Sequence record: NZ_CP110904.1 | Length of the DNA: 64,000 nucleotides | Direction: 5' to 3' (one strand) | DNA from: a plasmid | Part shown: positions 2,675 to 27,401 of the stretch, in pieces | How positions within the stretch are numbered: position 1 is the stretch's first letter | Layout of the letters: each line of letters opens with the position of its first letter | Position numbers and translations under genes: made by a program | The notes under the pieces: model-generated | Told to the model about the DNA's origin: nothing | Databases searched by the model: none | The model's input: the letters and a program-made list of their open reading frames with translations, nothing else

Positions 2675-2679
2675 ATGTA

Positions 2680-2702
2680 GGGGCTGTAAAGCCCCTTTAT
2701 TT
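2680..2702. terminator. Bidirectional rho-independent terminator (GGGGCT-GTAA-AGCCCC plus T-run) between the convergent genes
   Basis: Perfect 6-bp GC stem at 2680-2695 followed by TTTATTTTTATTTT. It sits between the stop of the + gene (2674) and the stop of the - gene (2703). Confidence 0.6.
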
Positions 2703-8298: not shown

Positions 8299-8357
8299 TA
8301 TGCCACTGGCAAACATCTGCCAGCGGGCGGTGTTTGCATTTTACCGGAGTTTTAAAA

Positions 8358-9410: not shown

Positions 9411-9448
9411 TTATAGATGGGACGAGTTATCAGAAGGCTGAATGCCTT

Positions 9449-9718
9449 GTGACAGACTTTGCTCATCTTTCGTTTTACGGTTTTTTGAGTGCAGACGGGG
9501 ATGAAACTTTCGCGATTGCACAGGAAGGAAATCAATATATAGGTCTTAAGCAGCACAATAATGATTTTTCATTTATTTGTTATCAAGATTGTGACAAAGA
9601 TATGGAAGCCATGATTAAGGGCCTTGAATCAAAAGGATTCATGTATCAAGGAAGTATTCAATCGACGTCTGTCGAGAGTGAATTTCCTGGAATTCTTTTA
9701 ACAACACTTGAGAAGTAA
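9449..9718 (+). CDS. Small hypothetical protein (89 aa, GTG start)
   Basis: ORF only. Weak SD. Confidence 0.35.
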   Translation: MTDFAHLSFYGFLSADGDETFAIAQEGNQYIGLKQHNNDFSFICYQDCDKDMEAMIKGLESKGFMYQGSIQSTSVESEFPGILLTTLEK

Positions 9719-9727
9719 TAATCTTAA

Positions 9728-9766
9728 CCCTATCGGGAAATCTTTCCCGACAGGGAGGTTTTCCCA
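9728..9766 (+). repeat. Structured intergenic repeat, copy (CCCTATCGGG-AAATCTTTCCCGACAGGGAGG-TTTTCCC)
   Basis: 5' CCC-N4-GGG hairpin, then an outer stem GGGAAA/TTTCCC enclosing a second CCC-N4-GGG. Confidence 0.7.
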
Positions 9767-9789
9767 TTTTTTTAATCTGGAGAAAACCT

Positions 9790-10917: not shown

Positions 10918-10936
10918 TTTAGTCTTGTAAAAATAA

Positions 10937-10972
10937 CCCCAGATGGGTACTTCACCATCTGGGTGAGTACCC
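10937..10972 (+). repeat. Structured intergenic repeat, copy (CCCCAGATGGG-TACTTCACCATCTGGGTGA-GTACCC)
   Basis: Outer stem GGGTAC/GTACCC. Inner CCATCTGGG. Confidence 0.7.
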
Positions 10973-10994
10973 TTTATTAATTAAAGGTACTCAA

Positions 10995-13007
10995 ATGAAA
11001 TTTGATTTGAAATCTTCACCCCGCCATATTCAACGCCTGACGAATATAGCCAGCGTGATAAGCGGTATAAGTGGTCTTAATGTTGTAATAGACAATAAGG
11101 TACATACACCTTATTTCAACAGCGAAAAGAACGTTTGTGTATTACCTAATGGTGATTATAGCGATGAGAAATTCGTCAAGCTAATTGAAGGGTTTATATG
11201 TCATGAAGCTGGACACGGTCGCTATACAGAACATGAAGTATACCGTGAAGCTTTTGTTGGGGAACTGATTAATGCAGATGGCTTCATCAGTATAGATGAT
11301 AAGCTGAACGCTGAATTTCAAACCCTTAAACAAAAGAAAATCGCATATGCCCGGGCTTACCGTCTACATGGACTTATTAATCTCTTTGATGATGTCCAGA
11401 TGGAAGAGAAAACGGGTATTGACTATCAGGAGGCAAAAAAGCGCCTCGCGGTAAGTTATGCCTTGATGGTTGAAGCTGGGCGAATGACGGTTGATGTTTC
11501 TTCAAGCCCTCAAAACCCTGTTCAGTTTATTGAAATGTTCCTGCTTAATACATTGCGGGTTAACGTTCTCCAGCAAGAAGGGCATAAAGAAACGCTTGAT
11601 CCATTTTTCGATTATGCAAAGAAAATCCTTGAGCCTGTAATTTTAGAAGTTGATGAGATTATTCATCAGGCTCTAAGTTGCAAAAGTACGCAAAATTGCG
11701 ATTCTCTGGCGCGTAAAACCTTGGCTCTTTTAGAGCGTTTACGGGATGAAGCCAAAGAGAAACAGCAAGAAGAGGATCAGAATAAAGACCCGCAAAACGA
11801 CACAGACAATTCATCTGGCTCTGAGAATGAACCTGATTCCGAAACCAATGGTGACAACCAGGGTGAAGGGGATGGAGATTCCGAAGAGCAAGACGATGAT
11901 GCTGGTAATGGTAAAGCACCTATGGAAGATAATGAGCCGTCAGAGCAATCTAAAGGGGATGAAGAAAGTGCTGAGAGCGGTAACGGTGAACCTGATGGAG
12001 AGCCCGAAACCGATGAATCGGCTAACCCTGACTCGTATGATGCTGACGGAACTCCTTCCCAAATCGACAGTTCCAATGGAAATCCTTCCGATGGGGAAAG
12101 TAACTTTTCTCCTGAGCAGTGGAGTATCCTTGCCAAATTGCTGGATGATTTTCTTAACAGCGATGAGGAAAGTGAAGATTTTCATGAGGCTCTTGCAAAT
12201 GAAATCTCCGTAATTGCTGCCAGTGTGTCGGATGAGGTTAAAGCTGAATTTGGTGCAAATGAGTGGGATCTTCCAGATTTGCTTATTGATCTGAATGTCT
12301 ACAATGAAGCATTAAATATCAGTCAGACTCTTGGGGCAGACTTATCTGTTTTACAGCAGGTAAAAATGCGTGGTCAATTTAAAACCCGTGATAGAGGCTT
12401 GTCATTCGACATTAATCGATTGATCCAGTCTCCGATGGGTGTGAGGGATGTATTCCGGTCGCAAAGCGAATCTAAAAACCGGGGCCACGTCGGCTTGGTT
12501 ATTGTTCGTGATATTTCAGGTTCTATGATTCTGGATCACCGTTATATCCACGCAATTAAGACTGACCTTGCATTAACTTTGGCGATTGAAGCTAATTCAA
12601 AAATGCACGTTGCTAATGTGATTTATCCGTTTGTCGACAAAGACTTTGAATTTATCAAAACGTTTGATGAAAACGCGGAAGAGACGCTTTCAAAATTTTC
12701 ACTCGGCTGTAAAGGGAATAATACCCCAACGGGTTCCGCCTTAATGGCTGCTGTAGAATTGTTACTTGAAAGCCAGTTTGACAGGAAAATTGTTTTCCTT
12801 ATTACTGATGGTTATCCGACAGAGTCTGATTACACCATTAGTGATGTTCTTACGGTAGCTGAAAGTAACGGTATTGAAATCGCTGGTGTAGGCATTAAAA
12901 CTGATGAGTTAATTGGTTTTGATGAGGGCACCTTCGTAAATGTTGATGATATTTCTTTACTGCCGAATGTGGTCAGTAAATTAGTACATCAAATTCTATC
13001 TAATTAA
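10995..13007 (+). CDS. vWA-domain protein with a central acidic low-complexity linker (CobT-like partner of the AAA ATPase)
   Basis: C-terminal MIDAS-type motif VGLVIVRDISGSMILD plus FLITDGYPTE. Residues ~250-360 are a D/E/S/N/G-rich tract (EEDQNKDPQNDTDNSSGSENEPDSETNGDNQGEGDGDSEEQDDDAGNG...). Confidence 0.8.
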   Translation: MKFDLKSSPRHIQRLTNIASVISGISGLNVVIDNKVHTPYFNSEKNVCVLPNGDYSDEKFVKLIEGFICHEAGHGRYTEHEVYREAFVGELINADGFISIDDKLNAEFQTLKQKKIAYARAYRLHGLINLFDDVQMEEKTGIDYQEAKKRLAVSYALMVEAGRMTVDVSSSPQNPVQFIEMFLLNTLRVNVLQQEGHKETLDPFFDYAKKILEPVILEVDEIIHQALSCKSTQNCDSLARKTLALLERLRDEAKEKQQEEDQNKDPQNDTDNSSGSENEPDSETNGDNQGEGDGDSEEQDDDAGNGKAPMEDNEPSEQSKGDEESAESGNGEPDGEPETDESANPDSYDADGTPSQIDSSNGNPSDGESNFSPEQWSILAKLLDDFLNSDEESEDFHEALANEISVIAASVSDEVKAEFGANEWDLPDLLIDLNVYNEALNISQTLGADLSVLQQVKMRGQFKTRDRGLSFDINRLIQSPMGVRDVFRSQSESKNRGHVGLVIVRDISGSMILDHRYIHAIKTDLALTLAIEANSKMHVANVIYPFVDKDFEFIKTFDENAEETLSKFSLGCKGNNTPTGSALMAAVELLLESQFDRKIVFLITDGYPTESDYTISDVLTVAESNGIEIAGVGIKTDELIGFDEGTFVNVDDISLLPNVVSKLVHQILSN

Positions 13008-13013
13008 CTCTAC

Positions 13014-13057
13014 CCAATTGGGGCAAAATGACGCCCGGTTGGGTCGTTTTGCTCCCT
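13014..13057 (+). repeat. Structured intergenic repeat, copy (CCCAATTGGGG-CAAAATGACGCCCGGTTGGGTCGTTTTG-CTCCC)
   Basis: Outer stem GGGGCAAAA/TTTTGCTCCC. Inner CCCGGTTGGG. Confidence 0.65.
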
Positions 13058-13077
13058 GAAGGATTAAGGAGCAATAT

Positions 13078-13299
13078 ATGACTCAGATAAAGACTTACCG
13101 TGTCGAGTATGAAAAAGTCGGGATGATGCATCGTGTCCGTATTTTTGGTCGCATGGGTGAAGTTGTCAAAAGTGAATTGCCAAAAGAAGTAATTCTCCGG
13201 GATGTATCTATACCGGAGGGTAATGTAAAAATGGCAACATCAATGGTTGATGGTTTTATCCAGCGTCTTGAAAATAATGGCTTCAAGTCTGAAGCGTAA
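13078..13299 (+). CDS. Small hypothetical protein (73 aa)
   Basis: Strong SD AAGGAGCAATAT before the ATG. Confidence 0.5.
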   Translation: MTQIKTYRVEYEKVGMMHRVRIFGRMGEVVKSELPKEVILRDVSIPEGNVKMATSMVDGFIQRLENNGFKSEA

Positions 13300-13306
13300 T
13301 TGTTAA

Positions 13307-13391
13307 GGGCCATTATGGCCCTTATTCTTAGATTCTGCGTTGTGGGTTTCTCCCTGTTTTCTGCATCGCAGAGGGCATTGAGAAACCCACA
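13307..13391 (+). repeat. Variant structured element upstream of the primase-like gene
   Basis: GGGCCAT-T-ATGGCCC at 13307-13321, then a 12-bp stem TGTGGGTTTCTC (13341-52) / GAGAAACCCACA (13380-91) whose loop holds CTGCATCGCAG. Confidence 0.6.
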
Positions 13392-13413
13392 ATGCCAGAT
13401 AAGAGAGAACAAA

Positions 13414-14646
13414 ATGACTTATGCATCACCGGCTGTTAAGCGTACACCACATGAAGTATCTGAGCACTTTATTAAAATGGTTCACGCTCGTGTTGCGGAA
13501 GCCTCTGGCTGGCGCTATGTATTCGATAGAATACCGGCATTTAAAGATGCTTGTGATAAAGCACCTAGCCAGGTTCCTTGCCCCTTCACCGGGGACGGGA
13601 AATCAAAGTTCCGTTTCCGAAAAAAAGACCTCTATACCGGTTGTGCTATTCACAATGATTTCCCTGTGAATGCATTTTGTGACGGTATTGATGTGCTGGC
13701 AGAGTATTACAAGTTGAGCAAAACCCAGACTTGTAAGAAGATCTTGACTGATTTCTTTGGTATGGATCTGTACGCTCCGTTAACTGATGCGGATCTCGAA
13801 AGTGAACGGCGTTATAAATCAACAGTTCGTGCAACCGAAACGCTTGATAGCGATGAAGTTGAAAAACGGCTGCGTAAACTTGAAGTGTTATATCACTATA
13901 CAGGTGAAATCAAGCCAGGGAGTCCTGTGGGCATGTATCTCCGAAATCGTGGTCTTAAACGAATTCTGAGTAATCTGCCTAAGGATCTTGGTCTGAACAA
14001 CCGACTTTACTATATGGATAAGTCACTAGAGAAACCGTCAACTTACCCGGGAATGATCGCAATTTATCGTGATACACGGGGACGTCCTCTGACAATCCAT
14101 AGAACGTTCGTAGAGAAAAATGGTGATAAGGCTCGGGTAGAGAATCCGAAACTGATGATGAAACCGCCTGCCGATATGACCGGCGGCTCAATTCAGCTGT
14201 ACGACCCACACTACAACTCAGGTACCCGTACCTGGACGTTAGGTGTGGCTGAAGGCATAGAAAACGCGCTGTCAGTAACTGAAGCGACTTCAACACCGTG
14301 TTGGGCTGCGAGCTCTGCCTGGTGTCTTGAAAACGTTGAAGTGCCGGATAGTCTACTGCCTCCTCCGGATGTGAAAGAAATACAGTTTTACGTCTGGGCG
14401 GATAAGGATGTTGTGAATTCAAGAGGCGCTTGCCCGGGTATGGAGTCAGCAATACGACTTCAGGCCCGAATGGAAGAGTTTTTTGCAAAGCGATATCCCA
14501 CTTCAGAGCTGACAATTAAAGTCTTTGAACCAGATTTCGATATTCCTGAAGGGACGAAAGGAATCGACTGGAACGAAGTATTGAAATTAACAGGACCTGA
14601 TGGCTTCCCAGTAAAATGGGCTCCTGAATGTCTTGCTCAGCTTTAA
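13414..14646 (+). CDS. Primase-like protein: CHC2-type zinc finger plus Toprim domain (ORF-track start 13300 rejected)
   Basis: Zn-finger-like CPFTGDGKSKFRFRKKDLYTGCAIHN, then Toprim-like TWTLGVAEGIENAL ... FYVWADKD. SD AGAGAG precedes the ATG at 13414. The upstream 113 nt of the track ORF is a nested hairpin, not coding-like. Confidence 0.7.
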   Translation: MTYASPAVKRTPHEVSEHFIKMVHARVAEASGWRYVFDRIPAFKDACDKAPSQVPCPFTGDGKSKFRFRKKDLYTGCAIHNDFPVNAFCDGIDVLAEYYKLSKTQTCKKILTDFFGMDLYAPLTDADLESERRYKSTVRATETLDSDEVEKRLRKLEVLYHYTGEIKPGSPVGMYLRNRGLKRILSNLPKDLGLNNRLYYMDKSLEKPSTYPGMIAIYRDTRGRPLTIHRTFVEKNGDKARVENPKLMMKPPADMTGGSIQLYDPHYNSGTRTWTLGVAEGIENALSVTEATSTPCWAASSAWCLENVEVPDSLLPPPDVKEIQFYVWADKDVVNSRGACPGMESAIRLQARMEEFFAKRYPTSELTIKVFEPDFDIPEGTKGIDWNEVLKLTGPDGFPVKWAPECLAQL

Positions 14647-15520: not shown

Positions 15521-16399
15521 ATGAAATTAGCTACAGATCTTGTCAATGCAGTTCTGATAAAGGATGGTGTTGTACCGGTTTCCATTACTGAGATGCCTGT
15601 ACAGTCTCTTGTAAATCCTTTGACACAAGTGCATCTCAGCCTGTACCTGAAAACAACGCATTTATCGCGGTTCGTCCCTGACTATGTCGAGACTCTGAAA
15701 GATTGTCCGGTATCGTATGATATCGGCCTTGAACTTCAGCAGTGTATCAGCAGTGCTGAATTGCTCTGCGAAGACATGGAATCGCTTGAATTTATCTCTG
15801 TATGGATAGAACTCTATACGTGTAATTCAAAGCAACAACGGTTTGAGGAAAGTAACTTTTCTCTTCGTTCCGAAGATATCGAGCTGGCTAAGATGCTAGC
15901 TTGTTCCCATGATCTCTTGATTAGCCAGGCTGCTTGTTTCTGGCTTTTATATTTTGATGACTTCATGAGATATGTGCGTAATAGACTCTGTACTTTACTC
16001 AGAGAAGTTTTAATACTGATTGCCGGACTGCGGAATGCATTCTTGCACCGTAATGAAGATCAGTTAATTAAGAGAGTGAAGTACGGGAATGAAATGCTGG
16101 AGGTAACTCTTAAAGCTATTGCACTATGTTCAATGGACCGGTATCTGAAATCATTTACCTCTTTACGAACAGAAGCGGCAGCTTCGGGTTTTATCAAATG
16201 TGTTAAGTCTTATATCAGTACAGGGTGGAGACATGGTTATATAGTCTGTCACTATTATCGAAATGGACAGTCTCTTGGTAAGTCATTACCACTTTTTATA
16301 AGTGAGACGTCTGAATACAGTATACAGAAACGAGTAAATCGTCTTATATCTTCCACGATATCAGGGCGAAATAAAGATTTAGGTCTTTCTGATTTCTGA
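15521..16399 (+). CDS. Hypothetical protein (292 aa); N-terminus resembles those of the next two genes
   Basis: N-terminus MKLATDLVNAVLIKDG compares with MKIIEKIINAFLMS (16467) and MKAIYKLIEAMLVK (17480). Confidence 0.55.
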   Translation: MKLATDLVNAVLIKDGVVPVSITEMPVQSLVNPLTQVHLSLYLKTTHLSRFVPDYVETLKDCPVSYDIGLELQQCISSAELLCEDMESLEFISVWIELYTCNSKQQRFEESNFSLRSEDIELAKMLACSHDLLISQAACFWLLYFDDFMRYVRNRLCTLLREVLILIAGLRNAFLHRNEDQLIKRVKYGNEMLEVTLKAIALCSMDRYLKSFTSLRTEAAASGFIKCVKSYISTGWRHGYIVCHYYRNGQSLGKSLPLFISETSEYSIQKRVNRLISSTISGRNKDLGLSDF

Positions 16400-16466: not shown

Positions 16467-17402
16467 ATGAAAATTATCGAGAAAATCATTAATGCATTTC
16501 TGATGTCACGCAATCACGCTGTGAAGGTCAGCAATGTTATCTGCTTAACTGGTTGTGACGGTAAATTTACTGGTATACGTTGTGACGCCGATGTTTCATT
16601 TGATTTTCTTCATTCGTATGCTAACGCATACAGTTCAATATTTTTAGATATCCCGTTCCCTGGGTTCGAAGACCAGAACATTACGGATTGTGTTAAACGT
16701 CAGTTAGATGTAGTGAAAAATAAACAGAATCGGTCTTTCTTTATTGACCATATTAGATTCCCGGTTACTGTCAAGGAAGGATTCACTCTACAGCGCGGTG
16801 GTAGTTGCGACGTGACTGATAGTGAATATAACAAGCAACGATTGCTGCATTTAACTCGACATGGACGTTTTGGTGAAGACTATCTCACGTACAAAGAAGG
16901 ACTGAGTCCCTTCTTTTCATTTGTGAATGTAGAATTACATGAAACTATGAAGGAAGGTATTCGTTTAGCACTTGATGTTTTAAATAAGATAACAACTGAC
17001 CAACCTGACCGTCTTATAAAGGACTTTAAATATCATGACTGTTACAATAGTTATAATGTTCAAATATTTTGTAAGGGGTTGCCAGTTGATATTCTGGAAA
17101 CGATGATCGCACCTGACTTTTTGTCATCCGACATGTCTGGTAGTCGTCAGATCATCAAAAATGCACGCCGCTATCTTAAAGGCTTTGCCCACAGTAATCG
17201 TGTTTACATGAAGTACGGTTGGCGCTTAGCGGATATCGACACGTCTGATTATGCTAAAGTCATGTCAGATAAAGAAATGCATGCCAGAGATGATCTTAAA
17301 ATGTTTTGCGGTGTCTTTGTTAAAGAGTGCTTCGCATCCGGAAAAGATGAATACGAAGCCTACCTTCAAGAAAGACAACACGCTATTCGTTACGGGTATT
17401 AA
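16467..17402 (+). CDS. Hypothetical protein (311 aa), paralog-family member
   Basis: Same N-terminal pattern as above. Structured repeat copy at 16409-16445. Confidence 0.55.
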   Translation: MKIIEKIINAFLMSRNHAVKVSNVICLTGCDGKFTGIRCDADVSFDFLHSYANAYSSIFLDIPFPGFEDQNITDCVKRQLDVVKNKQNRSFFIDHIRFPVTVKEGFTLQRGGSCDVTDSEYNKQRLLHLTRHGRFGEDYLTYKEGLSPFFSFVNVELHETMKEGIRLALDVLNKITTDQPDRLIKDFKYHDCYNSYNVQIFCKGLPVDILETMIAPDFLSSDMSGSRQIIKNARRYLKGFAHSNRVYMKYGWRLADIDTSDYAKVMSDKEMHARDDLKMFCGVFVKECFASGKDEYEAYLQERQHAIRYGY

Positions 17403-17425
17403 AACTTATTTTCAACTTATCTAAT

Positions 17426-17459
17426 CCCTGAGGGAACTCTTCCCTTGGGGAGAATTCCC
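17426..17459 (+). repeat. Structured intergenic repeat, copy (CCCTGAGGGAA-CTCTTCCCTTGGGGAGA-ATTCCC)
   Basis: Outer stem GGGAA/TTCCC. Inner CCCTTGGGG. Confidence 0.7.
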
Positions 17460-17479
17460 TCTTAACCGAGGGCAATAAA

Positions 17480-18213
17480 ATGAAAGCTATTTATAAATTA
17501 ATTGAAGCGATGCTGGTGAAGATGGGTTTTGAAGGTGCTGCGATCCAAAGTGTCAATCTGGAAACCGGAGTCATTCAGTGTCAGCAGCTCACCTGCGTCT
17601 TGTTGATGTTGAGCCAGACTGGCTGAATGAAGGTGTGAACCGTGAAAAACTGGACTATGTCTATTATCGTTCCAGCAATGCAGACAAGGATTTAATCCTT
17701 GGTATGGTTGAAAACGGTCACAATTTCATCAGCCATCTTCATGGCCAGTTACGGTCACGCTTATCTCAGGTTCTTCCGCTTATTTTCGCAGTTACAGAAA
17801 AGGTTGCGGAAAGTTCAGTTCCACAAGTGTTAACCAGGTTCTTCAGTGTTGACCATCAAATCAATACTCAGATAGTAGTTGAACCGGTACCCGTTTCAGT
17901 TGCAGACCAGATAATTTCTGCCAACTGGGATGTGAGTAGTATTTCTGGGGCTGACAAGTTCCTGAACCATGTTAATCGTTACCTGTCGGGTAGGGTGATG
18001 AAGCGGCGCATTTACGCTGTTATTGAATCTTGCAACGATGGCCCTTTAACTCTCGACGCGAATCTAGGTTGCTTTACTTCACCTCTTCTCGTCACTGAGT
18101 ACAAAATGGTTCAATCGCATTCTTCATCGCTGTACAGAAAGGCTATAAATAACTCGCTTAAGCAAATCAATTCGTATGCTCCAGAGCATTCGGATGATCT
18201 GCTTTACATGTAA
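17480..18213 (+). pseudogene. Paralog-family gene with a -1 frameshift near nt 17596 (authentic pseudogene, sequencing indel or recoding)
   Basis: ATG 17480 follows repeat copy 17426-17459 and encodes MKAIYKLIEAMLVK... in frame 2, stopping at 17626. Frame 1 carries on from ~17596 as LRLVDVEPDWL to 18213. Both halves align with the 16467 protein (LTGCDGKFTGIRCDADVSFDFL vs LETGVIQCQQLTC / VDVEPDWL). Confidence 0.45.
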
Positions 18214-18286: not shown

Positions 18287-19222
18287 ATGTTTAATGAAAA
18301 CGATGATATAAATTTTGTTAGCGCCATGCTTAAAAAACAACTTGGTCTGACAGTAATTCAACAGGATATTAAACTGTTTGATAAGTCTAATTTCTTTGAA
18401 CAACTCTCATTCAAAGCAGAAGTGGCGACTGATGATTTGTTATTCTATCTTGATTCATATATCGAAGAGTTGATAAAACATAAAGCGCCGTATTCTGAAA
18501 CCGAAGTTCTCCGGAATAAAATCAAATACCTTTTTAAAGTATATGAAAAGTCTGGGTTTCAGAAAATAACAATTCGTGGTTATCATAATGCGCATAGCAC
18601 TATGAAATTTTTCGATATAGCAACATCAATATTGGCGGCCTCAGAATCGTTGCCTGAATATGATGAATTTCAGAAAGGTCTCAGAAAGGAAATTTATCAG
18701 AATAGAATGAGTGTTGACGGGAAAGTTCTTATTGCCCGGTATGCACTGAAGCAATTTTTCCATTCTGATTTTGGCGACTTTATCTATGAGTTTGAGAAAA
18801 AAATAACAGAGTGTCTATTTAATTCTCTTCAGGTTATCAAGTCTGTTAAAAATTCATTTCATAGTTTAGGTCAATATCAATATCACCGTCGTGTAAATCA
18901 TGAACTGATGTTGCATCTTGAGCTGAACACTGATGAATACCCGGCTTGCATGCCTGATCTTTACATTGGTTTCAATGAGTCTGAAGGCACGACGGGGGCG
19001 TATTGCGATGATGAAAAACTCATTCGTCTTTATACCTGCGTAAGTTCCGGACACGATGTGCCGGTTATGATGAACGTTCGTTTCACTGGCAGTGATGGGA
19101 GTGTTAAGTGTGAATCCTCGCACGGAACCTTCTCTTCTGTGGGACCTTGTGGCCGAGTACAAATCTGTGACAGAGCAGCGTTGATCCATGAAGCGATTGA
19201 AGAGTTTCGGGACGGTGTTTAA
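18287..19222 (+). CDS. Hypothetical protein (311 aa), tandem paralog A
   Basis: SD GAGGAAGT before the ATG at 18287. Core DGKVLIARYALKQFFHSDF...YQYHRRVNHELMLHLELNTDEY is paralogous to the 19399 gene. Confidence 0.65.
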   Translation: MFNENDDINFVSAMLKKQLGLTVIQQDIKLFDKSNFFEQLSFKAEVATDDLLFYLDSYIEELIKHKAPYSETEVLRNKIKYLFKVYEKSGFQKITIRGYHNAHSTMKFFDIATSILAASESLPEYDEFQKGLRKEIYQNRMSVDGKVLIARYALKQFFHSDFGDFIYEFEKKITECLFNSLQVIKSVKNSFHSLGQYQYHRRVNHELMLHLELNTDEYPACMPDLYIGFNESEGTTGAYCDDEKLIRLYTCVSSGHDVPVMMNVRFTGSDGSVKCESSHGTFSSVGPCGRVQICDRAALIHEAIEEFRDGV

Positions 19223-19398: not shown

Positions 19399-20355
19399 AT
19401 GACTAATTATACTGATAATCAAAACTACGTTCGTGCAGTACTGGCAGACATTGGCATTGATTTTGATGAGACAGAGATTCATATCAATGTCTCTCACTGC
19501 CAGGGCGACGAGGTTTCTTTTTCTTGCAGTATATCAGCCAGTGAATTAAGACAGTCTGTGGACCATTATGCGGAAACGCTTAATGCTACTCAACTGGATG
19601 GACTGGATGCTAATACCCTCAAGAAGCGCCTGGTTTACTTCCTTGAGGTCTTCGACCAAGTTTCCGGTCAGTATCTGGATATCTCTGGTAAACACTACGC
19701 GACTAGCCGCTTTGAATACGATGATGTCTGTTGTGATATCCTAAGTCTTTCTGCGGATAGCACACAACCTGGTGGCTATGATCGTGAAGAATACAAAAAA
19801 CTGATGGAAGTTGATGGACAGGTTTTAATCGCCCGTTTTGCACTGGAACAATTCTGGAATACGCATTTTATTGGGCTTATCAACTATGTATCAGATGAAA
19901 TAACATCCGGTCTTCATGATGCTTATCGCACTTTCAGTGATATAAGCATGGCCGCTTATACATTTAGTGAGTATTCATATTCACGTCGAATTACCGACGA
20001 ACTGAGTCTGCATATTTCACTTCAAGAGGACGATTTCGACGATCAATTAACCGATTGTTATATGGATGAAACAACGCTGCCGTCCGGCAAAGTAGTTTTA
20101 CGTCGTAATAATGAATCGATTATTGATATTTATGAAAGTTATGCTGCAAAATCTTACTTTCATATGGTTGCTCATGTTCGAGTCCTTGATCAAGATGGTG
20201 AAGTCGTTAATGAACTTTACCAAGGGGTGAATGTATCTGAATTGACTGGTGGCCGGGTTAAAATCCATGACCGTCAGGATCTAATTTATGAAGTATTCTC
20301 CACATTACGTAAACTCATCCCCGCTACAGAGGTTAAAGTCTCCGTTGCGGCATGA
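19399..20355 (+). CDS. Hypothetical protein (318 aa), tandem paralog B
   Basis: Same SD GAGGAAGT. Core DGQVLIARFALEQFWNTHF...YSYSRRITDELSLHISLQEDDF aligns with paralog A. Confidence 0.65.
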   Translation: MTNYTDNQNYVRAVLADIGIDFDETEIHINVSHCQGDEVSFSCSISASELRQSVDHYAETLNATQLDGLDANTLKKRLVYFLEVFDQVSGQYLDISGKHYATSRFEYDDVCCDILSLSADSTQPGGYDREEYKKLMEVDGQVLIARFALEQFWNTHFIGLINYVSDEITSGLHDAYRTFSDISMAAYTFSEYSYSRRITDELSLHISLQEDDFDDQLTDCYMDETTLPSGKVVLRRNNESIIDIYESYAAKSYFHMVAHVRVLDQDGEVVNELYQGVNVSELTGGRVKIHDRQDLIYEVFSTLRKLIPATEVKVSVAA

Positions 20356-20398
20356 GTGCTGAAGATAGTTTTATATCTTCAGTTTTTTATACTCCCAA

Positions 20399-20428
20399 GA
20401 AGGCACGGTTATCCGTGCCTTTTTTTAT
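20399..20428 (+). terminator. Rho-independent terminator ending the first gene train
   Basis: AAGGCACGG-TTAT-CCGTGCCTT followed by TTTTTTT. Confidence 0.75.
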
Positions 20429-20763
20429 TCCTCAAATCTGTTCTTTAATCCGCTATATTTCAACGTACTCATTGACCGATATGATTAACTGCATTGCTCT
20501 CCGGTCACAGCTCTTCATAAACCATCCGTTACCTTCCGCATCAACTCCAATCCAAAATTACACTCTTTCTGCTGCTTCCTTTCCTGCTCCGGTTAGTTTC
20601 AATTTTTTGACACGTGTTTCCGTTTCCGGCCGCAATCAGTCTACATGCTGGAGACTGCATAAATAAAATTTACTTACTTTGTTTTAGTTTCGCGAAAATA
20701 GGTCTCTTATCCGAAAAATGGAACGATAGAGATTTGTATACTGTTTAAAACAAAGGAGTGACT

Positions 20764-21033
20764 ATGCCTGCCACCATAAGTCTGAGCAATATCCCTGTGA
20801 ACTCGGTCTTTTCCCACGACCAAAGCCAGTTCTCTTATCGGCATGTTGATTTCAGTATTGAGTTGCTGCTTTCTTCGGGAAGTGACTCACAGCTGGAGTA
20901 TCTTTTTCTCAAACCGGCAGCTGAAGTAAAGGCCGATCTACAGCGTCGTTTAGGCCGTGGGGAACTCTTTGTGACAACAGACAGTTGCGACAATTTTAGC
21001 GAAGTCTATGGCTGTATGGGACACGATTGCTGA
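20764..21033 (+). CDS. Hypothetical protein (89 aa), first gene of the overlapping 9-gene operon
   Basis: SD AAGGAG lies 5 nt before the ATG at 20764 (track GTG at 20758). Candidate -10 TATACT at 20737. Confidence 0.5.
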   Translation: MPATISLSNIPVNSVFSHDQSQFSYRHVDFSIELLLSSGSDSQLEYLFLKPAAEVKADLQRRLGRGELFVTTDSCDNFSEVYGCMGHDC

Positions 21034-21679
21034 GGGCTTTATAAAGGCAGGCGTCCGATTTTATAACAATACGAGACACAAGCACCTAATGATGACTGAA
21101 TCGTTCTATGACTGGGTTGTGTACTGCATCACGGGCGTAATAATGGCGTCGGCGCTCCTCGAAGGAAAAAGAACCCGTTTCCCGGCTGCATTTTTTTACG
21201 GAAGCATTGTGCTTCTGGTTGTTTTGATTGTGGCCGGTGGCCTGAACTGGTGGTTTTACCGGTCAAAATTCGGCTCAGTCGTCGTTATTTTTGCTGCTAC
21301 AACACTGTTAATGACCCGATTCAGGATGGTCATTTATGCGCTCAGGTTTCGGTCGCTGGTTGCAGGTCTGCAATCACACGTTAACAAGGGGTTCAGGATA
21401 ATCCTCGTTTTACCCGAAAATGAGGACGAGAAGATCGTATTAATGAGCATGTTGTCTAAAAAAATACCCGCAGGCGCGTTGTTTTATACCCAAACTGCTC
21501 TGGGTCCATATTCAGGGGATCTACTGCATGCATTGGGACAAAAACATCTTATGGGCGAAGGTTACCTGCTTCTCTGTGAGCAACAACTTCCTGCCCGAAC
21601 CTGGCTAAGCACTGTGGAAAACGGTGAACCAGAGACGTCTCTTGCAGTCAATTTTCATTCGATCCCTGATATGGAGTGA
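21008..21679 (+). CDS. Hypothetical membrane protein (223 aa)
   Basis: Several hydrophobic helices (ITGVIMASALL, IVLLVVLIVAGGLNWWF, VVVIFAATTLLM). Overlaps the previous gene. Confidence 0.55.
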   Translation: MAVWDTIAEGFIKAGVRFYNNTRHKHLMMTESFYDWVVYCITGVIMASALLEGKRTRFPAAFFYGSIVLLVVLIVAGGLNWWFYRSKFGSVVVIFAATTLLMTRFRMVIYALRFRSLVAGLQSHVNKGFRIILVLPENEDEKIVLMSMLSKKIPAGALFYTQTALGPYSGDLLHALGQKHLMGEGYLLLCEQQLPARTWLSTVENGEPETSLAVNFHSIPDME

Positions 21680-21686
21680 TACCCCT

Positions 21687-21944
21687 ATGTACAATACCGA
21701 TTCACAGACCGTACCAGCTGACACCCTGTGTGAAAGCAGTTCTCAGGTGAAAATTCAGTTAAGTCGAAGTGCCTCCCGGGCGCTGACGACGGCGAAAGAA
21801 ATTCTTGAAACCCGGGGACTGGAATCTGTATCAACTGAAGATCTCGTTCGGGCATGCCTCGAAGAAAATCATCCTCTCGATCTGGCCAGCATCTATCTTG
21901 AGCATCGACTAAAACAGAAGGGGACCAGCATCTGCGAATTTTAG
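21687..21944 (+). CDS. Hypothetical protein (85 aa)
   Basis: SD GGAGTGA before the ATG at 21687 (track 21624). Confidence 0.45.
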   Translation: MYNTDSQTVPADTLCESSSQVKIQLSRSASRALTTAKEILETRGLESVSTEDLVRACLEENHPLDLASIYLEHRLKQKGTSICEF

Positions 21945-22017
21945 CGTTTTGCAACCTATTGGGGAAAATCCGGAATGTGTTTAAATAGCTGTAAATAAAG
22001 CAATCTACAGGTAAATC

Positions 22018-22554
22018 ATGAAAAGCAATCTTCATCCTTTTGGAGCGTCTGGCACGAAACGAGTACTCAAAACGGACATTGCGTTGTCGCTGCTCTGTTG
22101 GATGTTTACCAGTCCCTTTAGCAACTGGACCGAAAAATATTTTACCGGCACAGAGGTGCCTGAAGCACCGATGCCCGAGTTGGGTCAGGCACCTGAGGCT
22201 ATCTTTCGATTTGTGCTTAATGATGATGGTTTTGATGTTGGTTATGACGCTGTGGGTATGGATCTCTGCTGTTTCTCTATCCCACTATCTGCAATGCCAA
22301 CAGTAAATCTCGACGAAGAAGAGACGTTATCCAGGCTGACTGGCGAAATGATCCACGGCGTACTGCTTTCTCTGCCTGAGTACCTTGAGATGCCAGACAG
22401 GCTTGTCTATCAGCTAAATGATGAGGTAATGGCGTTCAATTCACACTGTGGCAACGGAATTCTCCATGGATGGACGTCAGCGCAAGAGCTGTGGCGAAAC
22501 GAGATCTTGCCACGCACACCTATTTTGATGCAGCACACCTCAGTCATTCACTGA
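22018..22554 (+). CDS. Hypothetical protein (178 aa)
   Basis: ORF in the operon. No recognisable domain. Confidence 0.55.
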   Translation: MKSNLHPFGASGTKRVLKTDIALSLLCWMFTSPFSNWTEKYFTGTEVPEAPMPELGQAPEAIFRFVLNDDGFDVGYDAVGMDLCCFSIPLSAMPTVNLDEEETLSRLTGEMIHGVLLSLPEYLEMPDRLVYQLNDEVMAFNSHCGNGILHGWTSAQELWRNEILPRTPILMQHTSVIH

Positions 22555-22570
22555 GTTCCGGGGGCTCTGG

Positions 22571-23017
22571 ATGAAAAAGCGACTTTACCTGTTGGAATGG
22601 AAACTTTGTGAGACACGAGCCTGGTTAGGATGGATGGTTTTTTGGTTGATCATCAGTTTTATGCTGTTATCTGCGATGTTGATGACAGGGCATTTGCTAA
22701 ACAAGTTTGTCCTAGCGCCCGTCTGGCTGTTTATCTGGTGCTCTCCCTGGTTATGCTTCTTGTTGAAGGTACGCGTGACCGAGATTGATAAAGGGCTGGT
22801 GAATACCCTTCAGCTCGGAGGTTTACCGGTTTGTCGGTGGAGCCGTCCTGTAGTTCCCGGCATTTGGTCTGTTGATCGAATGAACGGCCGCTACAGGCTG
22901 AACCGTATTGGCACGGATGGCCTAACGGTACATTATCCGTGGCGCTTGCATTATCAGCCTTTGTTCCTGACTCCGGATAACCAGATTTCTGATATTAACG
23001 GGGGTAAACATGAATGA
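22571..23017 (+). CDS. Hypothetical membrane protein (148 aa)
   Basis: Two hydrophobic helices (WLGWMVFWLIISFMLLSAMLM, VLAPVWLFIWCSPWLCFLL). Its stop overlaps the next start. Confidence 0.55.
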   Translation: MKKRLYLLEWKLCETRAWLGWMVFWLIISFMLLSAMLMTGHLLNKFVLAPVWLFIWCSPWLCFLLKVRVTEIDKGLVNTLQLGGLPVCRWSRPVVPGIWSVDRMNGRYRLNRIGTDGLTVHYPWRLHYQPLFLTPDNQISDINGGKHE

Positions 23018-23618
23018 AAAATATGACGCTGTAGTGAGTGCAGCTACCTCCTGTCTGTTGTATGTCCGTGAAAACGGAAGGTCAGGCCTCGGGGAATGCC
23101 CGGTGGCGTATTCGAATGAACTCATCAACAGATGGCTTAGTTCGGCTGAACGTCGTAATTTGCATTCTCGTCAGTGTTTGCGTTCGATCCGAACCATTCT
23201 GAAGCAAGCCAGAAAGTGTCGTCAGCCTGATTTTAAGAGCGTGATGCATTTGCTGGTGGAAGGTAATGGCGTTATCCCGGATGTTACAGTATCGGATTTG
23301 GGTAATGTGCAGAGTATACGAAATGAACTTATTGGACTGGGCTGGTGGGTGAAGTTCGGTGTACCGCTGGACTGGCAGCGTATCAATCTGCAACACAGGC
23401 CTGTCAGTTTTGGCCTTTTGTCCGACCTTAATCGTTGTTTCAGGCATGACGGCCAGCAGGCTGAACCTCTGCCCCTTTATACAACAGGCAATTCCGATGA
23501 ACTGCGGAAGGTGTTGGAAAAGTACAGCTACCGGCTGCGTATCGCATCTTCAGAAGTGGTTGAGGATGTAACGGTGTTGCGCTGTTTTATTGAAACCGGA
23601 GTGATGAATGTCCAGTGA
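23010..23618 (+). CDS. Hypothetical protein (202 aa)
   Basis: 8-nt overlap with the upstream gene. The next gene overlaps by 11 nt. Confidence 0.55.
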   Translation: MNEKYDAVVSAATSCLLYVRENGRSGLGECPVAYSNELINRWLSSAERRNLHSRQCLRSIRTILKQARKCRQPDFKSVMHLLVEGNGVIPDVTVSDLGNVQSIRNELIGLGWWVKFGVPLDWQRINLQHRPVSFGLLSDLNRCFRHDGQQAEPLPLYTTGNSDELRKVLEKYSYRLRIASSEVVEDVTVLRCFIETGVMNVQ

Positions 23619-24567
23619 AAATTTACCTTTCTACCGTGATCGGATTCTGGAGCGAATTGAACAGCTCAGAGCCTTTCTGAATAACCATCAGCCGGTGATG
23701 GCGGAACTGATGACTGTGGGGGCCGTCACGCGCCACGAAGAGCGGCTGAAAGAGGTTACCCCAATTGAGGTGAGTACTATTTCTGATGCCTCTGTAGATG
23801 ACATTATCCGTGTATTTCAGGATTTTTGTATCGATGACATCGATGTACTCAGCAGGAATTCAACGAAAGTAACGACCAAATATCCGGGGCTGATTATTGT
23901 TCCTGAGGGTGCCGAACTGCTGAGCAGAATTATTCGCGATATCAACGACGCCAAAACTGACTTTGCCTCAGCTATGAAAAGGGTAAATGATGAGAAACAC
24001 ATCCGCTTTGAGGAAGTTCACCGTAAACTTCCCGGCCTTGTGACAGTGGCGTCTACTCGCAAAATTATGTTTGTGGAGGCACGGCTTAAAAAAGTTACTT
24101 TTTGCTGGCGACTAAACCGGAACCAGGTAAAAACCAACGCCAGTGAGCTCATCGCGATGCTGGATAAGCGTCGTACGGCAGCGGTCAAATCGCCAGCGAC
24201 CACTGACCTGACAGTGGTTGCGAACATCGATAGGGCGAAGGCATTACTTGAAAGAAAGGTCCTACAAGACGGGGATGCGTTACGTCTTTGTCGGACCAAT
24301 ACCTTCCCGGTTCCGATCGCGCATCTGTTCTCATACCGTCCTGAAGGCACGGAGCGTGGAAGTAGCAAATACGCCGAGACGGATTACAAGGTGGTGAAAG
24401 CCTCACTGCCCATTTTCGCTGTTGGACAAAAGCCAGCATTTAAAGGTCTTCAGAACTGGGTGCCTGCGTCGGATGACGCACCGTCAAATGCACGAAGGAT
24501 CAACCATAGCTACACGGAGCTTGTACCCGGTGCGGATCTTGGCATTTTCATTATGAGTAAGGTCTGA
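23608..24567 (+). CDS. Hypothetical protein (319 aa)
   Basis: Overlapping, translationally coupled ORF. Confidence 0.55.
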   Translation: MSSENLPFYRDRILERIEQLRAFLNNHQPVMAELMTVGAVTRHEERLKEVTPIEVSTISDASVDDIIRVFQDFCIDDIDVLSRNSTKVTTKYPGLIIVPEGAELLSRIIRDINDAKTDFASAMKRVNDEKHIRFEEVHRKLPGLVTVASTRKIMFVEARLKKVTFCWRLNRNQVKTNASELIAMLDKRRTAAVKSPATTDLTVVANIDRAKALLERKVLQDGDALRLCRTNTFPVPIAHLFSYRPEGTERGSSKYAETDYKVVKASLPIFAVGQKPAFKGLQNWVPASDDAPSNARRINHSYTELVPGADLGIFIMSKV

Positions 24568-24577
24568 GGAGAAAAGC

Positions 24578-25486
24578 ATGCAATGGATCTCCACTACCAG
24601 CCAGAAGCTCGATGAGAGACTTTATCGTGTCTGTGTCTGGGTGAAAAAATACCACGAGGACGCTATTAACCGTGTTGTATTGACGGTGGATCTCAGTAAA
24701 GCCCGACATGACCCGGGAGAGGATAAGGTACGGTCCGAGTTACTGTGTGGCCATTACTTTCTCATGAGGAAGGAAAACAATGCGAAATCGGCGCCAGCGG
24801 ATCAAAACTTTGAATTTTTACCTGACGGCCGCAACCTGAGCTGGCAGACGTCGACCCCGGGGCTTCAGCAGCTTCTGCTGAACAATAATGTACCGGAGTC
24901 CCTCAGGACCCTGGCTGATTATATTCACATGCGTCTGACCAAACTGACAATGGTCCCGATGTCGGGAACCATAATGAAAGCTGCACAGGAAGACAGTATC
25001 AGCTGGGTGAAAGTGGATCTGCGATATTTCTGGCAGTATGAACTGGTTGATTCCCATCTGGGACCTGTCCAGGTGTCTCATAAGGCGCTTGTGCGTTTTG
25101 GCCGTCTGGCTAAACACGATGAAAATGCCAGCGCTATTCGTATGCTTCGCCAGCGGTTGTCATCACCATTTATTCAGGAATATGAGATGCCTGAGGAGGA
25201 GCTGAAGCGTAAGCAACAGATCATGAATACCGCCGATGTGAAAATGCTTTTTCATGCTCATTATCCGGGGCAGAAATTGCTGTTGGCCCGGTATGCCAAT
25301 GGCTGGGTGCTGGTGGATTGTTTCCTGTTCCACCATATCAAACCCAAAAAGAAGGCGAAAAACAAAACCAAAGCAGGCAAATCAGAAACACAAAATATAA
25401 AAACGACGGGGAGTGAGGATCATGGAACTGGGCATTATGGTGTGCATCGTGTTGTTACTCTCACTGGCAGCGGTGTGGATCAGTAA
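24578..25486 (+). CDS. Hypothetical protein (302 aa) with a Lys-rich C-terminal tail
   Basis: C-terminus KPKKKAKNKTKAGKSETQNIKTTG. SD GGAGAAAAGC before the ATG. Confidence 0.55.
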   Translation: MQWISTTSQKLDERLYRVCVWVKKYHEDAINRVVLTVDLSKARHDPGEDKVRSELLCGHYFLMRKENNAKSAPADQNFEFLPDGRNLSWQTSTPGLQQLLLNNNVPESLRTLADYIHMRLTKLTMVPMSGTIMKAAQEDSISWVKVDLRYFWQYELVDSHLGPVQVSHKALVRFGRLAKHDENASAIRMLRQRLSSPFIQEYEMPEEELKRKQQIMNTADVKMLFHAHYPGQKLLLARYANGWVLVDCFLFHHIKPKKKAKNKTKAGKSETQNIKTTGSEDHGTGHYGVHRVVTLTGSGVDQ

Positions 25487-25766
25487 CAAGGCGGTGGGAT
25501 TACTGGAAATCCATTATTTTAAGCGACCGCTGAGCATGGAATATGCGGCGTGGCTGAGGGTGATGTGTGCCGGTTTGTTGTTTATTTTTATCCAGATGGC
25601 CCCGGCATTCACGTTTCTGTATACGCTTAAGCTGGTGGCACTGTTAAACTTGGGTGTGCAAACTATGAAGCTTAACGGCGTTTATAAAATGAAACGCACA
25701 GGTATGCTGCCGCCGAAAGACGCCCTTCAGGATCTGAACCGGTTTAATCCTTTCCGTAAGAAATAA
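25422..25766 (+). CDS. Small membrane protein (114 aa)
   Basis: SD GAGTGAGGA before the ATG at 25422 (track 25413). Three hydrophobic helices. It ends 24 nt before the stop of the convergent integrase. Confidence 0.45.
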   Translation: MELGIMVCIVLLLSLAAVWISNKAVGLLEIHYFKRPLSMEYAAWLRVMCAGLLFIFIQMAPAFTFLYTLKLVALLNLGVQTMKLNGVYKMKRTGMLPPKDALQDLNRFNPFRKK

Positions 25767-25790
25767 CCCTCAGCAGCGCCCGCATGGGCG

Positions 25791-26981
25791 CTACTCATCC
25801 AGCGCTCCGCGCATGAATTGCGTCATCGCTTTTTTACCAGCTTCAATGTTACGGATATAGCGTGAAACCATCTCCGCGTTGCTCCAGTTACCCATCTCCA
25901 TGATCTGCAAGAGCGTATACCCGGCATGAGCAAGTTCGATGGCACCGCCTACGCGGACGCTGTGACCGGTCCAGCATCGGGTGCCCGTTTCCTGCGGATG
26001 AAGCTCTTCCCAAAGCGCTTCAAAGGCCCGGAGTAGCGTGTTCTTACTAAGCATACCCTCATCCTCGACGGGAATGGGTTCGCCATTTCCCCCGAGCGGG
26101 GTTCGGGTAGGCAGATAGGGCATGTTATGGTTTCTCAGCAGCGCATTGATTTCGTTACCCTGGCTTCGTAAACCCCATTCAGGTGGCATATATCCGTTAT
26201 CCTGAAAGTTAACGGCCTGAAAGAGATAGTCCTTCGGATGGCTGTATTGATCCCTTCCGACCATACCCATCAGCCTTCTCAGTGTGGCTGTGAGGTTAGG
26301 GGTCAGATGATAGGTGAGCAGGGTACTGACAGTGGATTTTGTCCGGTATACCGTCAAGGTAAAGCTGCCGGTCTTTTCATCCAGCACAAGGTCTTCCATC
26401 CGAATTCGCCTGATCTCCGCTGAGCGAAGCAGTGTTTCAAACCCTGTCCAAATTAGGCAAAGGTCGCGGAGTTTGCGCACCGACTGCGTCGTACTGTGTG
26501 CTTTAATCAATGCCTTTAGATCCGTCACCATGAATGGCGTAGCCTGGCGGGTAACTTTCTGCTTTCGGGCTTCAGCCTGTTCGAGGGCCGCAAGAATATA
26601 ACCCACTTCAGATGTGATGATCCCAGGCTGATCGAGTGCTTTCCTTTGGATACTGTTCAGGGCATGCAGGCACCCTTTAATACTGCTTCGTGACAGTGAC
26701 TTCTGAAGATGGTCTAAATAGGCCAGCAGTGGAGTTTCAGTCACCGGGAGAGAGCTGGCGGGCCAATCTTCGTTCACCTCCTTTCCTGCATTTGCCTGAT
26801 ACCACTCATTCCAGGAACGCAGCCAATGGAGATACGTCTTAGCCGTATGGTATTTCAGGTGAGAAAAATAGCGGATGAGGCGCATCAGTTGCTTGTCATT
26901 AACTTTAACCGTAGACAATTGTTGATGGAGATCGTTGTCTGCAAACCGTCTGGTTACTGGCTGGCTATTCATTGTGTCCAC
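25791..26981 (-). CDS. Tyrosine site-specific integrase/recombinase (396 aa)
   Basis: C-terminal catalytic signature TGHSVRVGGAIELAHAGYTLLQIMEMGNWSNAEMVSRYIRN carries the H-x-x-R box and the Tyr nucleophile. There is also an N-terminal SAM-like domain. Confidence 0.85.
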   Translation of the reverse strand: MDTMNSQPVTRRFADNDLHQQLSTVKVNDKQLMRLIRYFSHLKYHTAKTYLHWLRSWNEWYQANAGKEVNEDWPASSLPVTETPLLAYLDHLQKSLSRSSIKGCLHALNSIQRKALDQPGIITSEVGYILAALEQAEARKQKVTRQATPFMVTDLKALIKAHSTTQSVRKLRDLCLIWTGFETLLRSAEIRRIRMEDLVLDEKTGSFTLTVYRTKSTVSTLLTYHLTPNLTATLRRLMGMVGRDQYSHPKDYLFQAVNFQDNGYMPPEWGLRSQGNEINALLRNHNMPYLPTRTPLGGNGEPIPVEDEGMLSKNTLLRAFEALWEELHPQETGTRCWTGHSVRVGGAIELAHAGYTLLQIMEMGNWSNAEMVSRYIRNIEAGKKAMTQFMRGALDE

Positions 26982-27187: not shown

Positions 27188-27401
27188 CATGTCCGAAACT
27201 AAACAGGCGTATTTGATGAAATTTCGTAAGTGCTCTTCATTTGACACACTGGAAAAAGTATTTGAACGACTCTGTGAAAAGAATGTTGGTATAGTTTCAC
27301 TAGAAATTTCCGGGGCATATGACCATCGAAAAGCTGAATTGACAATGAAAAAACTCTACGATAAAGTCCCCGCCAGTGTATGGACCCTGGTTCGTCAGTA
27401 A
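27188..27401 (+). CDS. Hha/YmoA-family modulator (70 aa; H-NS co-regulator family)
   Basis: MSETKQAYLMKFRKCSSFDTLEKVFERLCEKN...DHRKAELTMKKLYDKVPASVWTLVRQ aligns with E. coli Hha (…[21 protein letters not shown]…[25 protein letters not shown]). Confidence 0.85.

Follow-up and report, generated by a model that had tools for sequence, protein, structure and literature searches.

The DNA analysed here is a stretch of 64,000 nucleotides (nt) from a plasmid (sequence record NZ_CP110904.1), hereafter the window. Between an intrinsic terminator and a convergent tyrosine recombinase gene it carries nine + strand open reading frames (ORFs; 20764–25766), numbered here genes 1 to 9 (Table 1). A preliminary description, made from the sequence alone, had presented them as a new operon of nine genes devoid of recognisable motifs, three of them encoding membrane proteins. 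The coordinates were confirmed, as were the upstream terminator, the Shine-Dalgarno sequence and ATG with which the operon opens, the 24 nt separating the stop of gene 9 (25766) from that of the recombinase gene (25791), and predicted hydrophobic spans in the products of genes 2 (three spans), 5 (two) and 9 (two to three). The supposed lack of motifs was not borne out, since gene 7 encodes a homologue of the replication terminus site-binding protein Tus (Pfam Ter, PF05472) and gene 6 gives a marginal match to DUF2913. By its identity and operon structure, the block is almost certainly the IncHI backbone operon that corresponds to R0192–R0184 of the IncHI1 plasmid R27, R0184 to R0192 being assigned to genes 9 to 1 from gene order and from two anchors, R0182 (hha) and R0183 (the tyrosine recombinase).

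Table 1. Features of the nine-gene operon and its borders (positions in the window; aa, amino acids; TM, transmembrane; dN/dS, ratio of nonsynonymous to synonymous substitution rates)
Feature	Position	Strand	Description
Intrinsic terminator of the upstream paralogue block	20397..20428	+	12-bp stem with 6 GC pairs, T-run
-10 hexamer TATACT, putative operon promoter	20737..20742	+	TATACT/TATAAT in each of seven lineages, ~20 nt 5' of the gene 1 ATG
Shine-Dalgarno sequence AAGGAG of gene 1	20753..20758	+	read from the sequence; ATG at 20764
Gene 1 (R0192 equivalent)	20764..21033	+	89-aa acidic soluble protein; dN/dS 0.13; no family match found
Gene 2 (R0191)	21089..21679	+	196 aa, 3 predicted TM helices, C-terminal soluble domain of ~100 aa; dN/dS 0.13
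Gene 3 (R0190)	21687..21944	+	85-aa acidic helical protein; dN/dS 0.06
Gene 4 (R0189)	22018..22554	+	178-aa acidic soluble protein; dN/dS 0.11; profile search of PDB empty
Gene 5 (R0188)	22571..23017	+	148 aa, 2 TM helices, C-terminal domain (GRYR-NR and HYxWR motifs); dN/dS 0.11–0.22
Gene 6 (R0187)	23010..23618	+	202-aa DUF2913-like protein
Gene 7 (R0186), plasmid tus	23608..24567	+	319-aa Tus homologue (replication terminus site-binding protein)
Gene 8 (R0185)	24578..25486	+	302-aa basic protein; predicted RNase H-like N-terminal domain, second alpha/beta domain, Lys-rich disordered tail
Gene 9 (R0184)	25422..25766	+	114-aa inner-membrane protein, 2–3 TM helices; 65-nt overlap with gene 8
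GC-rich hairpin between the convergent gene 9 and recombinase gene	25772..25795	.	inverted repeat AGCAGCGCCC/GGGCGCTACT, 4-nt loop
Tyrosine recombinase gene, R27 R0183 orthologue	25791..26972	-	Pfam Phage_integrase and SAM-like N domain
hha (Hha/YmoA family)	27189..27401	+	constant right-hand neighbour; called by the Prokaryotic Genome Annotation Pipeline (PGAP) in pNDM-CIT, pHCM1 and IncHI2, by Pfam HHA in L006, L019 and L021

The product of gene 7 matched the Pfam Ter family with an E value of 2.1e-23 (83.3 bits against a cutoff of 22), which places it in this family, and scored 55.6 against the NCBIfam equivalog cutoff of 323; it is therefore a divergent member of the Tus family and not the chromosomal equivalog. 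E. coli Tus (1ECR) matched residues 19–189 at an E value of 9e-6. Within this region, the segment RFEEVHRKLPGL aligned to RFEWVHRHLPGL of the E. coli protein, which holds residues F140, H144 and G149 of the pocket that locks C6 of Ter. The resulting RFxxVHxxLPGL segment is conserved in the closer lineages (see below), F, H and P do not vary among the seven lineages compared, and the position equivalent to G149 is Gly in six of the seven and Arg in the remaining one, L016. PGAP also names the product 'DNA replication terminus site-binding protein', and an annotation of tus/ter exists for an IncHI2 plasmid (PMC5923156). Plasmid-borne tus genes form an established class, from which chromosomal tus is proposed to derive (PMC6549158).

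The 5.1-kb region 20700–25800 is 100% identical to the corresponding DNA of 62 sequenced plasmids, including pNDM-CIT (NC_019360.1) and pECO-109b. Matches in PLSDB amounted to 1,416 records, nearly all of them conjugative MOBH/MPF_F IncHI plasmids, from Escherichia, Salmonella, Enterobacter, Klebsiella and Citrobacter. By megablast their identities fall into three bands corresponding to three lineages: the pNDM-CIT type (100%), IncHI1 (such as pHCM1 and R27; 87% at the nt level) and IncHI2, in which gene 8 alone was detectable (75%) and the orthologues share 58–80% aa identity. The window is the backbone of an IncHI conjugative megaplasmid of the pNDM-CIT-type lineage, and not an integrative and conjugative element (ICE). 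The genes run from trhN and trhI, at the distal end of the transfer region Tra2, through AAA, DUF3150, VWA and toprim genes and a block of paralogues of ~300 aa to the nine-gene operon, on whose other side lie the recombinase gene and hha. By gene order, the AAA ATPase, DUF3150, VWA and toprim genes between trhI and the paralogues (8334–14646) appear to correspond to the R27 cluster R0204–R0002, which is reported to be strongly induced at 25 °C and to have no assigned function (PMC7366339).

The nine genes have the arrangement that identifies an IncHI backbone operon, namely colinear orthologues on an IncHI replicon, flanked by the paralogues on one side and by the recombinase gene and hha on the other. 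Such colinear blocks were found in eight lineages, namely the pNDM-CIT type, IncHI1 (R27 R0192–R0184), IncHI2 and five more distant ones. The order paralogues, genes 1 to 6, tus, genes 8 and 9, and the oppositely oriented recombinase followed by hha was present in IncHI1, the pNDM-CIT type, L006 (~60% aa identity), L018/L019/L020, L021 and L005. In L016 (~30% aa identity) all nine genes occur in order, with four additional genes between gene 9 and the recombinase gene, and hha was not called; IncHI2 lacks only gene 6 of the set. Gene order, spacing and translational coupling are retained from 94% down to about 30% identity. A contig designated L017 (GCA_001280945.1, LJCS01000011.1; 7600–10786) keeps genes 1 to 5 and gene 8 beside traN and toprim. 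The block in L017 is followed by a TonB receptor gene and a nonribosomal peptide synthetase/polyketide synthase (NRPS/PKS) cluster. Neither L016 nor L017 had a PLSDB match by megablast.

Broader searches for the genes, whose co-occurrence had been raised in the preliminary description, returned IncHI-type loci only. None of the nine families was found outside the block in genome contigs, in homologue searches for genes 6 and 7, or by tblastn against PLSDB. All seven loci from the contig search were of the IncHI2 type, the homologue searches (word-indexed and hence biased to close relatives) returned relatives of this block only, and tblastn recovered the same ~1,413 plasmids. On this distribution, the nine-gene set is a lineage-specific, vertically inherited backbone module, invariant in these plasmids and not a variable island. 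Only in a weak sense can the set be said to match that of a described family, in so far as it belongs to the annotated backbone of a described plasmid family; its annotation there is as hypothetical proteins only.

The nine ORFs are subject to purifying selection, as dN/dS between lineages was about 0.06–0.2 for each of them taken separately, and their boundaries are kept in up to eight lineages. In a seven-lineage alignment, the DNA 5' of gene 1 was poorly conserved except for the preceding terminator and the TATACT/TATAAT hexamer at 20737–20742, for which we propose a promoter function with a weak -35 element. The stem and T-run of the terminator are conserved in IncHI1, L006, L019 and L021. 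At the other end, the GC-rich hairpin between gene 9 and the recombinase gene is likely to act as a bidirectional terminator, judging from its sequence and position. The conserved promoter and the flanking terminators support the view, already taken in the preliminary description, that the operon is a transcription unit separate from the upstream paralogue block.

The tight packing reported for the operon applies to most junctions. Genes 5 and 6 (23010/23017) overlap by 8 nt and genes 6 and 7 (23608/23618) by 11 nt, genes 7 and 8 (24567/24578) are 10 nt apart, and further junctions have gaps of 7 and 16 nt. However, genes 3 and 4 are separated by 73 nt, so that not all gaps are below 20 nt, and a 65-nt overlap between genes 8 and 9 had been missed. 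The 26-nt overlap reported at 21008/21033 is an artefact of a non-conserved start: the ORF of gene 2 extends upstream to 21008, and the added part is not conserved, its first 27 codons being frameshifted in IncHI1 and absent from IncHI2. From the conserved start (ATG at 21086/21089) the gap to gene 1 is about 52–55 nt; a newer PGAP start lies at 21143.

Published microarray data for R27 indicate that all nine ORFs are expressed, R0184–R0192 giving signals of 540–3057 units at 25 and 37 °C (PMC7366339, Tables S3/S4). None of them is thermoregulated in the wild type (fold changes of -1.9 to +1.2 at 25 °C), and the adjoining R0193/R0194 are silent in the wild type (PMC7366339).

The recombinase shares 84% aa identity with the IncHI1 copy (R0183) and has the same synteny. 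R27 lacking R0183 is stable in wild-type cells and readily lost in xerC, xerD or FtsK-ATPase mutants, and R0183 was accordingly described as a self-encoded dimer-resolution system redundant with the FtsK-dependent XerCD site (PMC11724359). This XerCD site of R27 (xrs, at 135.8 kb) is absent from the window. Since the orthologue serves dimer resolution, adjacency to the recombinase is no argument for control of integration or excision, as had been proposed when the enzyme was taken for an integrase. No Xis or other recombination directionality factor (RDF) family was found in Pfam, NCBIfam and PHROGs scans, and the locus resides on circular conjugative plasmids, so that an integration-excision module of an ICE or prophage is not what is present here. 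The recombinase gene itself lies outside the nine-gene operon, on the opposite strand.

Conservation is highest for gene 8 (77% aa identity between IncHI2 and the present lineage; dN/dS 0.07–0.12). Its relatives are few: a set of 5.8 billion proteins contained 13 clusters, and one of 1.84 billion representatives gave 20 hits. An AlphaFold2 model built from 7 close sequences had a mean confidence (pLDDT) of 50 and became usable once four distant homologues were added. In this model the N-terminal domain adopts an RNase H-like fold; sequence similarity to E. coli RNase HI was not found. When the positions are mapped by the order of secondary-structure elements, not by structural alignment, strand 1 carries an invariant I-S-T and strand 4 W-Q/H-T where catalytic Asp residues are expected, so that the equivalents of D10 and D70 of RNase H would be an invariant Thr and Gln/His. 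The only conserved carboxylates are E48/D49 at the start of helix 1. Since the canonical DEDD carboxylates are not seen, we read the domain as a non-canonical, probably non-catalytic RNase H fold that would bind nucleic acid and not cleave it. It also differs from the type 1 RNase H superfamily in having a second domain and a Lys-rich tail. That gene 8 encodes a second Tus was ruled out by comparison, it is unrelated to the upstream paralogue family, and an ASKHA-like two-domain architecture was considered and left as unsupported.

The DNA in which genes 8 and 9 overlap (25422–25486) shares 100, 94 and 86% nt identity with three lineages, compared with 90, 74 and 65% for the rest of gene 8. 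An identity so far above that of the remaining gene is expected of dual coding, and, on this pattern of conservation in both frames, we regard the overlap as truly dual coding. In L016, L019 and L021 the C-terminal extension of gene 8 is absent and the two genes abut without overlapping, so that the overlap arose within the IncHI1/2/3/L006 clade.

The nine products were scanned against Pfam, NCBIfam, PHROGs and PADLOC, and separate scans of each family member added nothing. These scans returned only Tus, the weak DUF2913 match and matches at chance level; the seven products other than those of genes 6 and 7 belong to no Pfam, NCBIfam, PHROG or PADLOC family. Profile searches of PDB sequences with genes 2, 3, 4, 6 and 8 gave nothing credible. 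All-against-all comparison of the nine families by hhalign revealed no hidden paralogy, the best pair being genes 6 and 7 at 10.7% probability. The preliminary description, which gave no function for any of the nine, was right for eight of them: in public databases they are called 'hypothetical', 'membrane protein', 'inner membrane protein' or 'DUF2913', and the open-access main texts searched do not name these ORFs in the context of R27. The DUF2913 match of gene 6 (PF11140; E 0.0045, 17.2 bits) is below the cutoff of 23; its homologues have a precomputed PF11140 match, and UniRef calls the exact sequence 'DUF2913 family protein'. In gene 1, H27, C75, C84 and H87 are invariant across the eight lineages (motif C-x8-GCxGH), suggesting a small zinc-binding protein, with a putative site defined solely by these Cys/His residues. 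The acidic product of gene 3 gave sub-threshold matches to a TetR_N-type helix-turn-helix in 3 of 8 members only; a ribbon-helix-helix fold was considered and left as unsupported.

We interpret the block as an operon that serves replication and maintenance of plasmid DNA, with Tus at its centre, a reading that we rate at about even. The nine genes would be transcribed from one promoter, located by the conserved -10 element. The plasmid Tus would bind one or more plasmid-specific Ter sites and arrest replication forks, thereby limiting where replication ends in a multi-replicon plasmid of 180–400 kb, and the adjacent recombinase would then resolve dimers. The likeliest DNA-associated partners of Tus are the products of gene 8 (basic, with the RNase H fold) and gene 6 (DUF2913), coupled translationally to tus on either side, whereas the membrane and small acidic proteins may tether or regulate the apparatus. 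Confidence differs between the parts of this reading: that the plasmid Tus acts as a fork-arrest protein is rather probable, and that a single mechanism unites all nine genes is possible but doubtful.

Several observations weigh against this interpretation. In gene 7 no clear counterpart of R198 of E. coli Tus is seen, the region being impossible to align and the C-terminal half too divergent. A search of the 64-kb window with the E. coli-type Ter core GNRNGTTGTAAYKA, allowing up to 1 mismatch, found no match, nor was a Ter-like sequence found upstream of tus; a divergent Tus may recognise another sequence. The only perfect match to GNRNGTTGTAAYKA in R27 (NC_002305.1) is at 72134 (22134 of L022; sequence GTGTGTTGTAATGA), an intergenic position about 17 kb from RepHI1A. 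It is not conserved, the core being GGTGTAA in a pNDM-CIT-like plasmid, and is therefore probably a chance match. Some 26 kb separate tus (162 kb) from the xrs/matS terminus of R27 (135.8 kb), so that tus does not mark the R27 terminus. Gene 6 contains two in-frame stops in IncHI1 and has been deleted in IncHI2, and by these sequences it is dispensable. In L017, tus, gene 9 and the recombinase gene have been lost and an 88-aa remnant of gene 6 is left; together with the loss of gene 6 from IncHI2, this shows the genes of the operon to be separable, the core of genes 1 to 5 and 8 from tus in particular. The response to HtdA, described below, ties expression to the conjugation circuit and not to replication. 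Finally, each of the roles proposed for the eight partners of Tus is our own inference.

The main alternative is that the operon is an accessory or establishment module of conjugation, extending the transfer region distally on its Tra2/'AN' side. The products, membrane proteins included, would then act in the donor or the new recipient while DNA is transferred or shortly afterwards, for example to process, replicate or protect the incoming strand, and Tus would be one DNA-handling factor among them. The operon is contiguous and co-oriented with trhN-trhI, the AAA/DUF3150/VWA/toprim genes and the paralogue family, and genes 1 to 5 and 8 of L017 stay beside traN and toprim in the absence of tus and recombinase. 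Moreover, mutation of htdA raises the signals of the nine R27 ORFs together at 25 °C, by 2.5- to 10-fold, as it does those of the tra genes (PMC7366339). This derepression is, however, shared by 106 of 170 non-tra genes and hence is not specific, and wild-type R27 shows no induction of the nine ORFs at 25 °C, a temperature at which 14 tra genes and R0204–R0002 are induced. In addition, no matches to type IV secretion system (T4SS), relaxosome or exclusion families were found in the Pfam, NCBIfam and member-by-member scans. We regard a role in conjugation as somewhat improbable. It is also conceivable that the genes are co-transcribed but functionally mixed, Tus acting without partners, as it does in E. 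coli, and the remaining eight having unrelated roles. The nine families are indeed mutually unrelated, two lineages have lost gene 6 or carry it in decayed form, L017 is without tus, and R0186 and R0187 have the highest basal signal and the lowest fold change in the htdA mutant, a hint of an internal promoter for tus. Such persistence of order, spacing and coupling across eight lineages, down to about 30% identity, would nevertheless be unusual for unrelated genes, and the families were not found outside the block; we consider this explanation unlikely.

A system for entry exclusion, excision control, toxicity or anti-phage defence beside an integrase, as envisaged in the preliminary description, would accord with the small polytopic membrane proteins, the small acidic proteins and the tight gene coupling. 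Yet no PADLOC-DB v2 model was matched by any product beyond chance-level hits of two small proteins (E 0.036 and 0.05), no informative PHROG match was obtained, and nothing with the signature of a toxin or of exclusion turned up. With a plasmid as the element and a dimer resolvase as the recombinase, there is nothing to excise. Entry exclusion in IncHI plasmids has been assigned to the Z operon of Tra2 (in R27, trhZ, R0016; EexA/EexB), a locus different from R0184–R0192. The block is fixed backbone in about 1,400 plasmids and not a variable island, and purifying selection on it is uniformly strong. A system of this kind is very improbable. That the ORFs are chance ORFs or remnants of two or three larger genes that have decayed can be practically dismissed. 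The mis-called start at 21008, the splitting of gene 5 into two ORFs in one PGAP record and the gene 6 pseudogene of IncHI1 would fit such an origin, but the dN/dS of each ORF, the boundaries and synteny kept in up to eight lineages and the microarray signals for all nine R27 ORFs refute it, and the mis-called start accounts for one overlap only.

As the sequence is public on more than 1,000 contigs, tus is annotated and the recombinase has been characterised, the operon is not a new element. In the literature searched we found no description of the operon as a unit, of its architecture in eight lineages, of the dual-coding overlap of genes 8 and 9 or of the RNase H fold of gene 8. What the data establish is a tus gene lying within a multi-gene operon of its own; nothing so far points to an unusual mechanism. 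An unlikely but far-reaching version of the Tus-centred reading is that the native plasmid Tus is a subunit of a dedicated, partly membrane-associated machine. This machine would further comprise the DUF2913 protein, the RNase H-fold pseudo-nuclease, and the three small membrane and three small acidic proteins, and would link the arrest of forks with the resolution of dimers or the segregation of megaplasmids. If so, chromosomal tus would be what domestication has left of this operon.

IncHI plasmids are important vehicles of mcr-1, NDM, IMP and the multidrug resistance of typhoid. The operon is an invariant part of the backbone in about 1,400 sequenced plasmids, and for eight of its nine products no function has been described. 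The conserved native partners, most clearly the RNase H-fold and DUF2913 proteins, are concrete candidates for explaining how Tus works, or once worked, off the E. coli chromosome. Should the operon be needed for stable inheritance, it would offer a backbone target common to all IncHI lineages.

Other features of the window were noted in passing. The upstream paralogues lie at 15521–16399 (p1), 16467–17402 (p2), 17402–18213 (p3), 18287–19222 (p4) and 19399–20355 (p5), p4 and p5 sharing 27% identity. The third looks frameshifted, an N-terminal part ('MKAIYKLIEAML...') in another frame stopping before the ORF 17578–18213; in R27 it is instead the last paralogue that is interrupted, by IS2. The GC content rises to 70% at 39–40 kb and 57% at 40–41 kb over a background of about 45–50%, which looks like foreign or compositionally odd DNA; the ORF at 38979–40190, which matches no Pfam family, precedes a gene for a DUF6884 protein. 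Farther on are paralogues resembling UvrB (43798–45825, - strand; Pfam UvrB_inter/UvrB) and UvrA (51864–54515, + strand; Pfam UvrA_DNA-bind/ABC_tran), and a gene for cytochrome bd subunit I (58958–60367, - strand).

Of the systems known, the closest is Tus-Ter of E. coli (PF05472; PDB 1ECR/2I05). Gene 7 belongs to the same protein family and keeps the segment RFxxVHxxLPGL, which in E. coli forms the C6-lock pocket; only its N-terminal ~190 residues can be aligned. In E. coli a Ter site, TerB, lies in the tus promoter, whereas the window is without a Ter core of the E. coli type; and E. coli tus is a solitary, autoregulated gene, whereas the plasmid tus is the seventh cistron of a nine-gene operon. 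Mobile plasmid-borne tus genes were treated by Galli et al. (2019, PMC6549158), where tus is likewise carried by gammaproteobacterial plasmids. The available part of that paper does not discuss the neighbourhood on the plasmid side, which is here defined and conserved (DUF2913, RNase H-fold and membrane proteins, and the resolvase).

In plasmids R6K and R1/R100, Ter sites served by the host Tus shape the plasmid's own replication. These plasmids carry Ter only and use the Tus of the host, whereas IncHI plasmids encode a highly divergent Tus of their own. R1 is mentioned in this context in PMC10331603.

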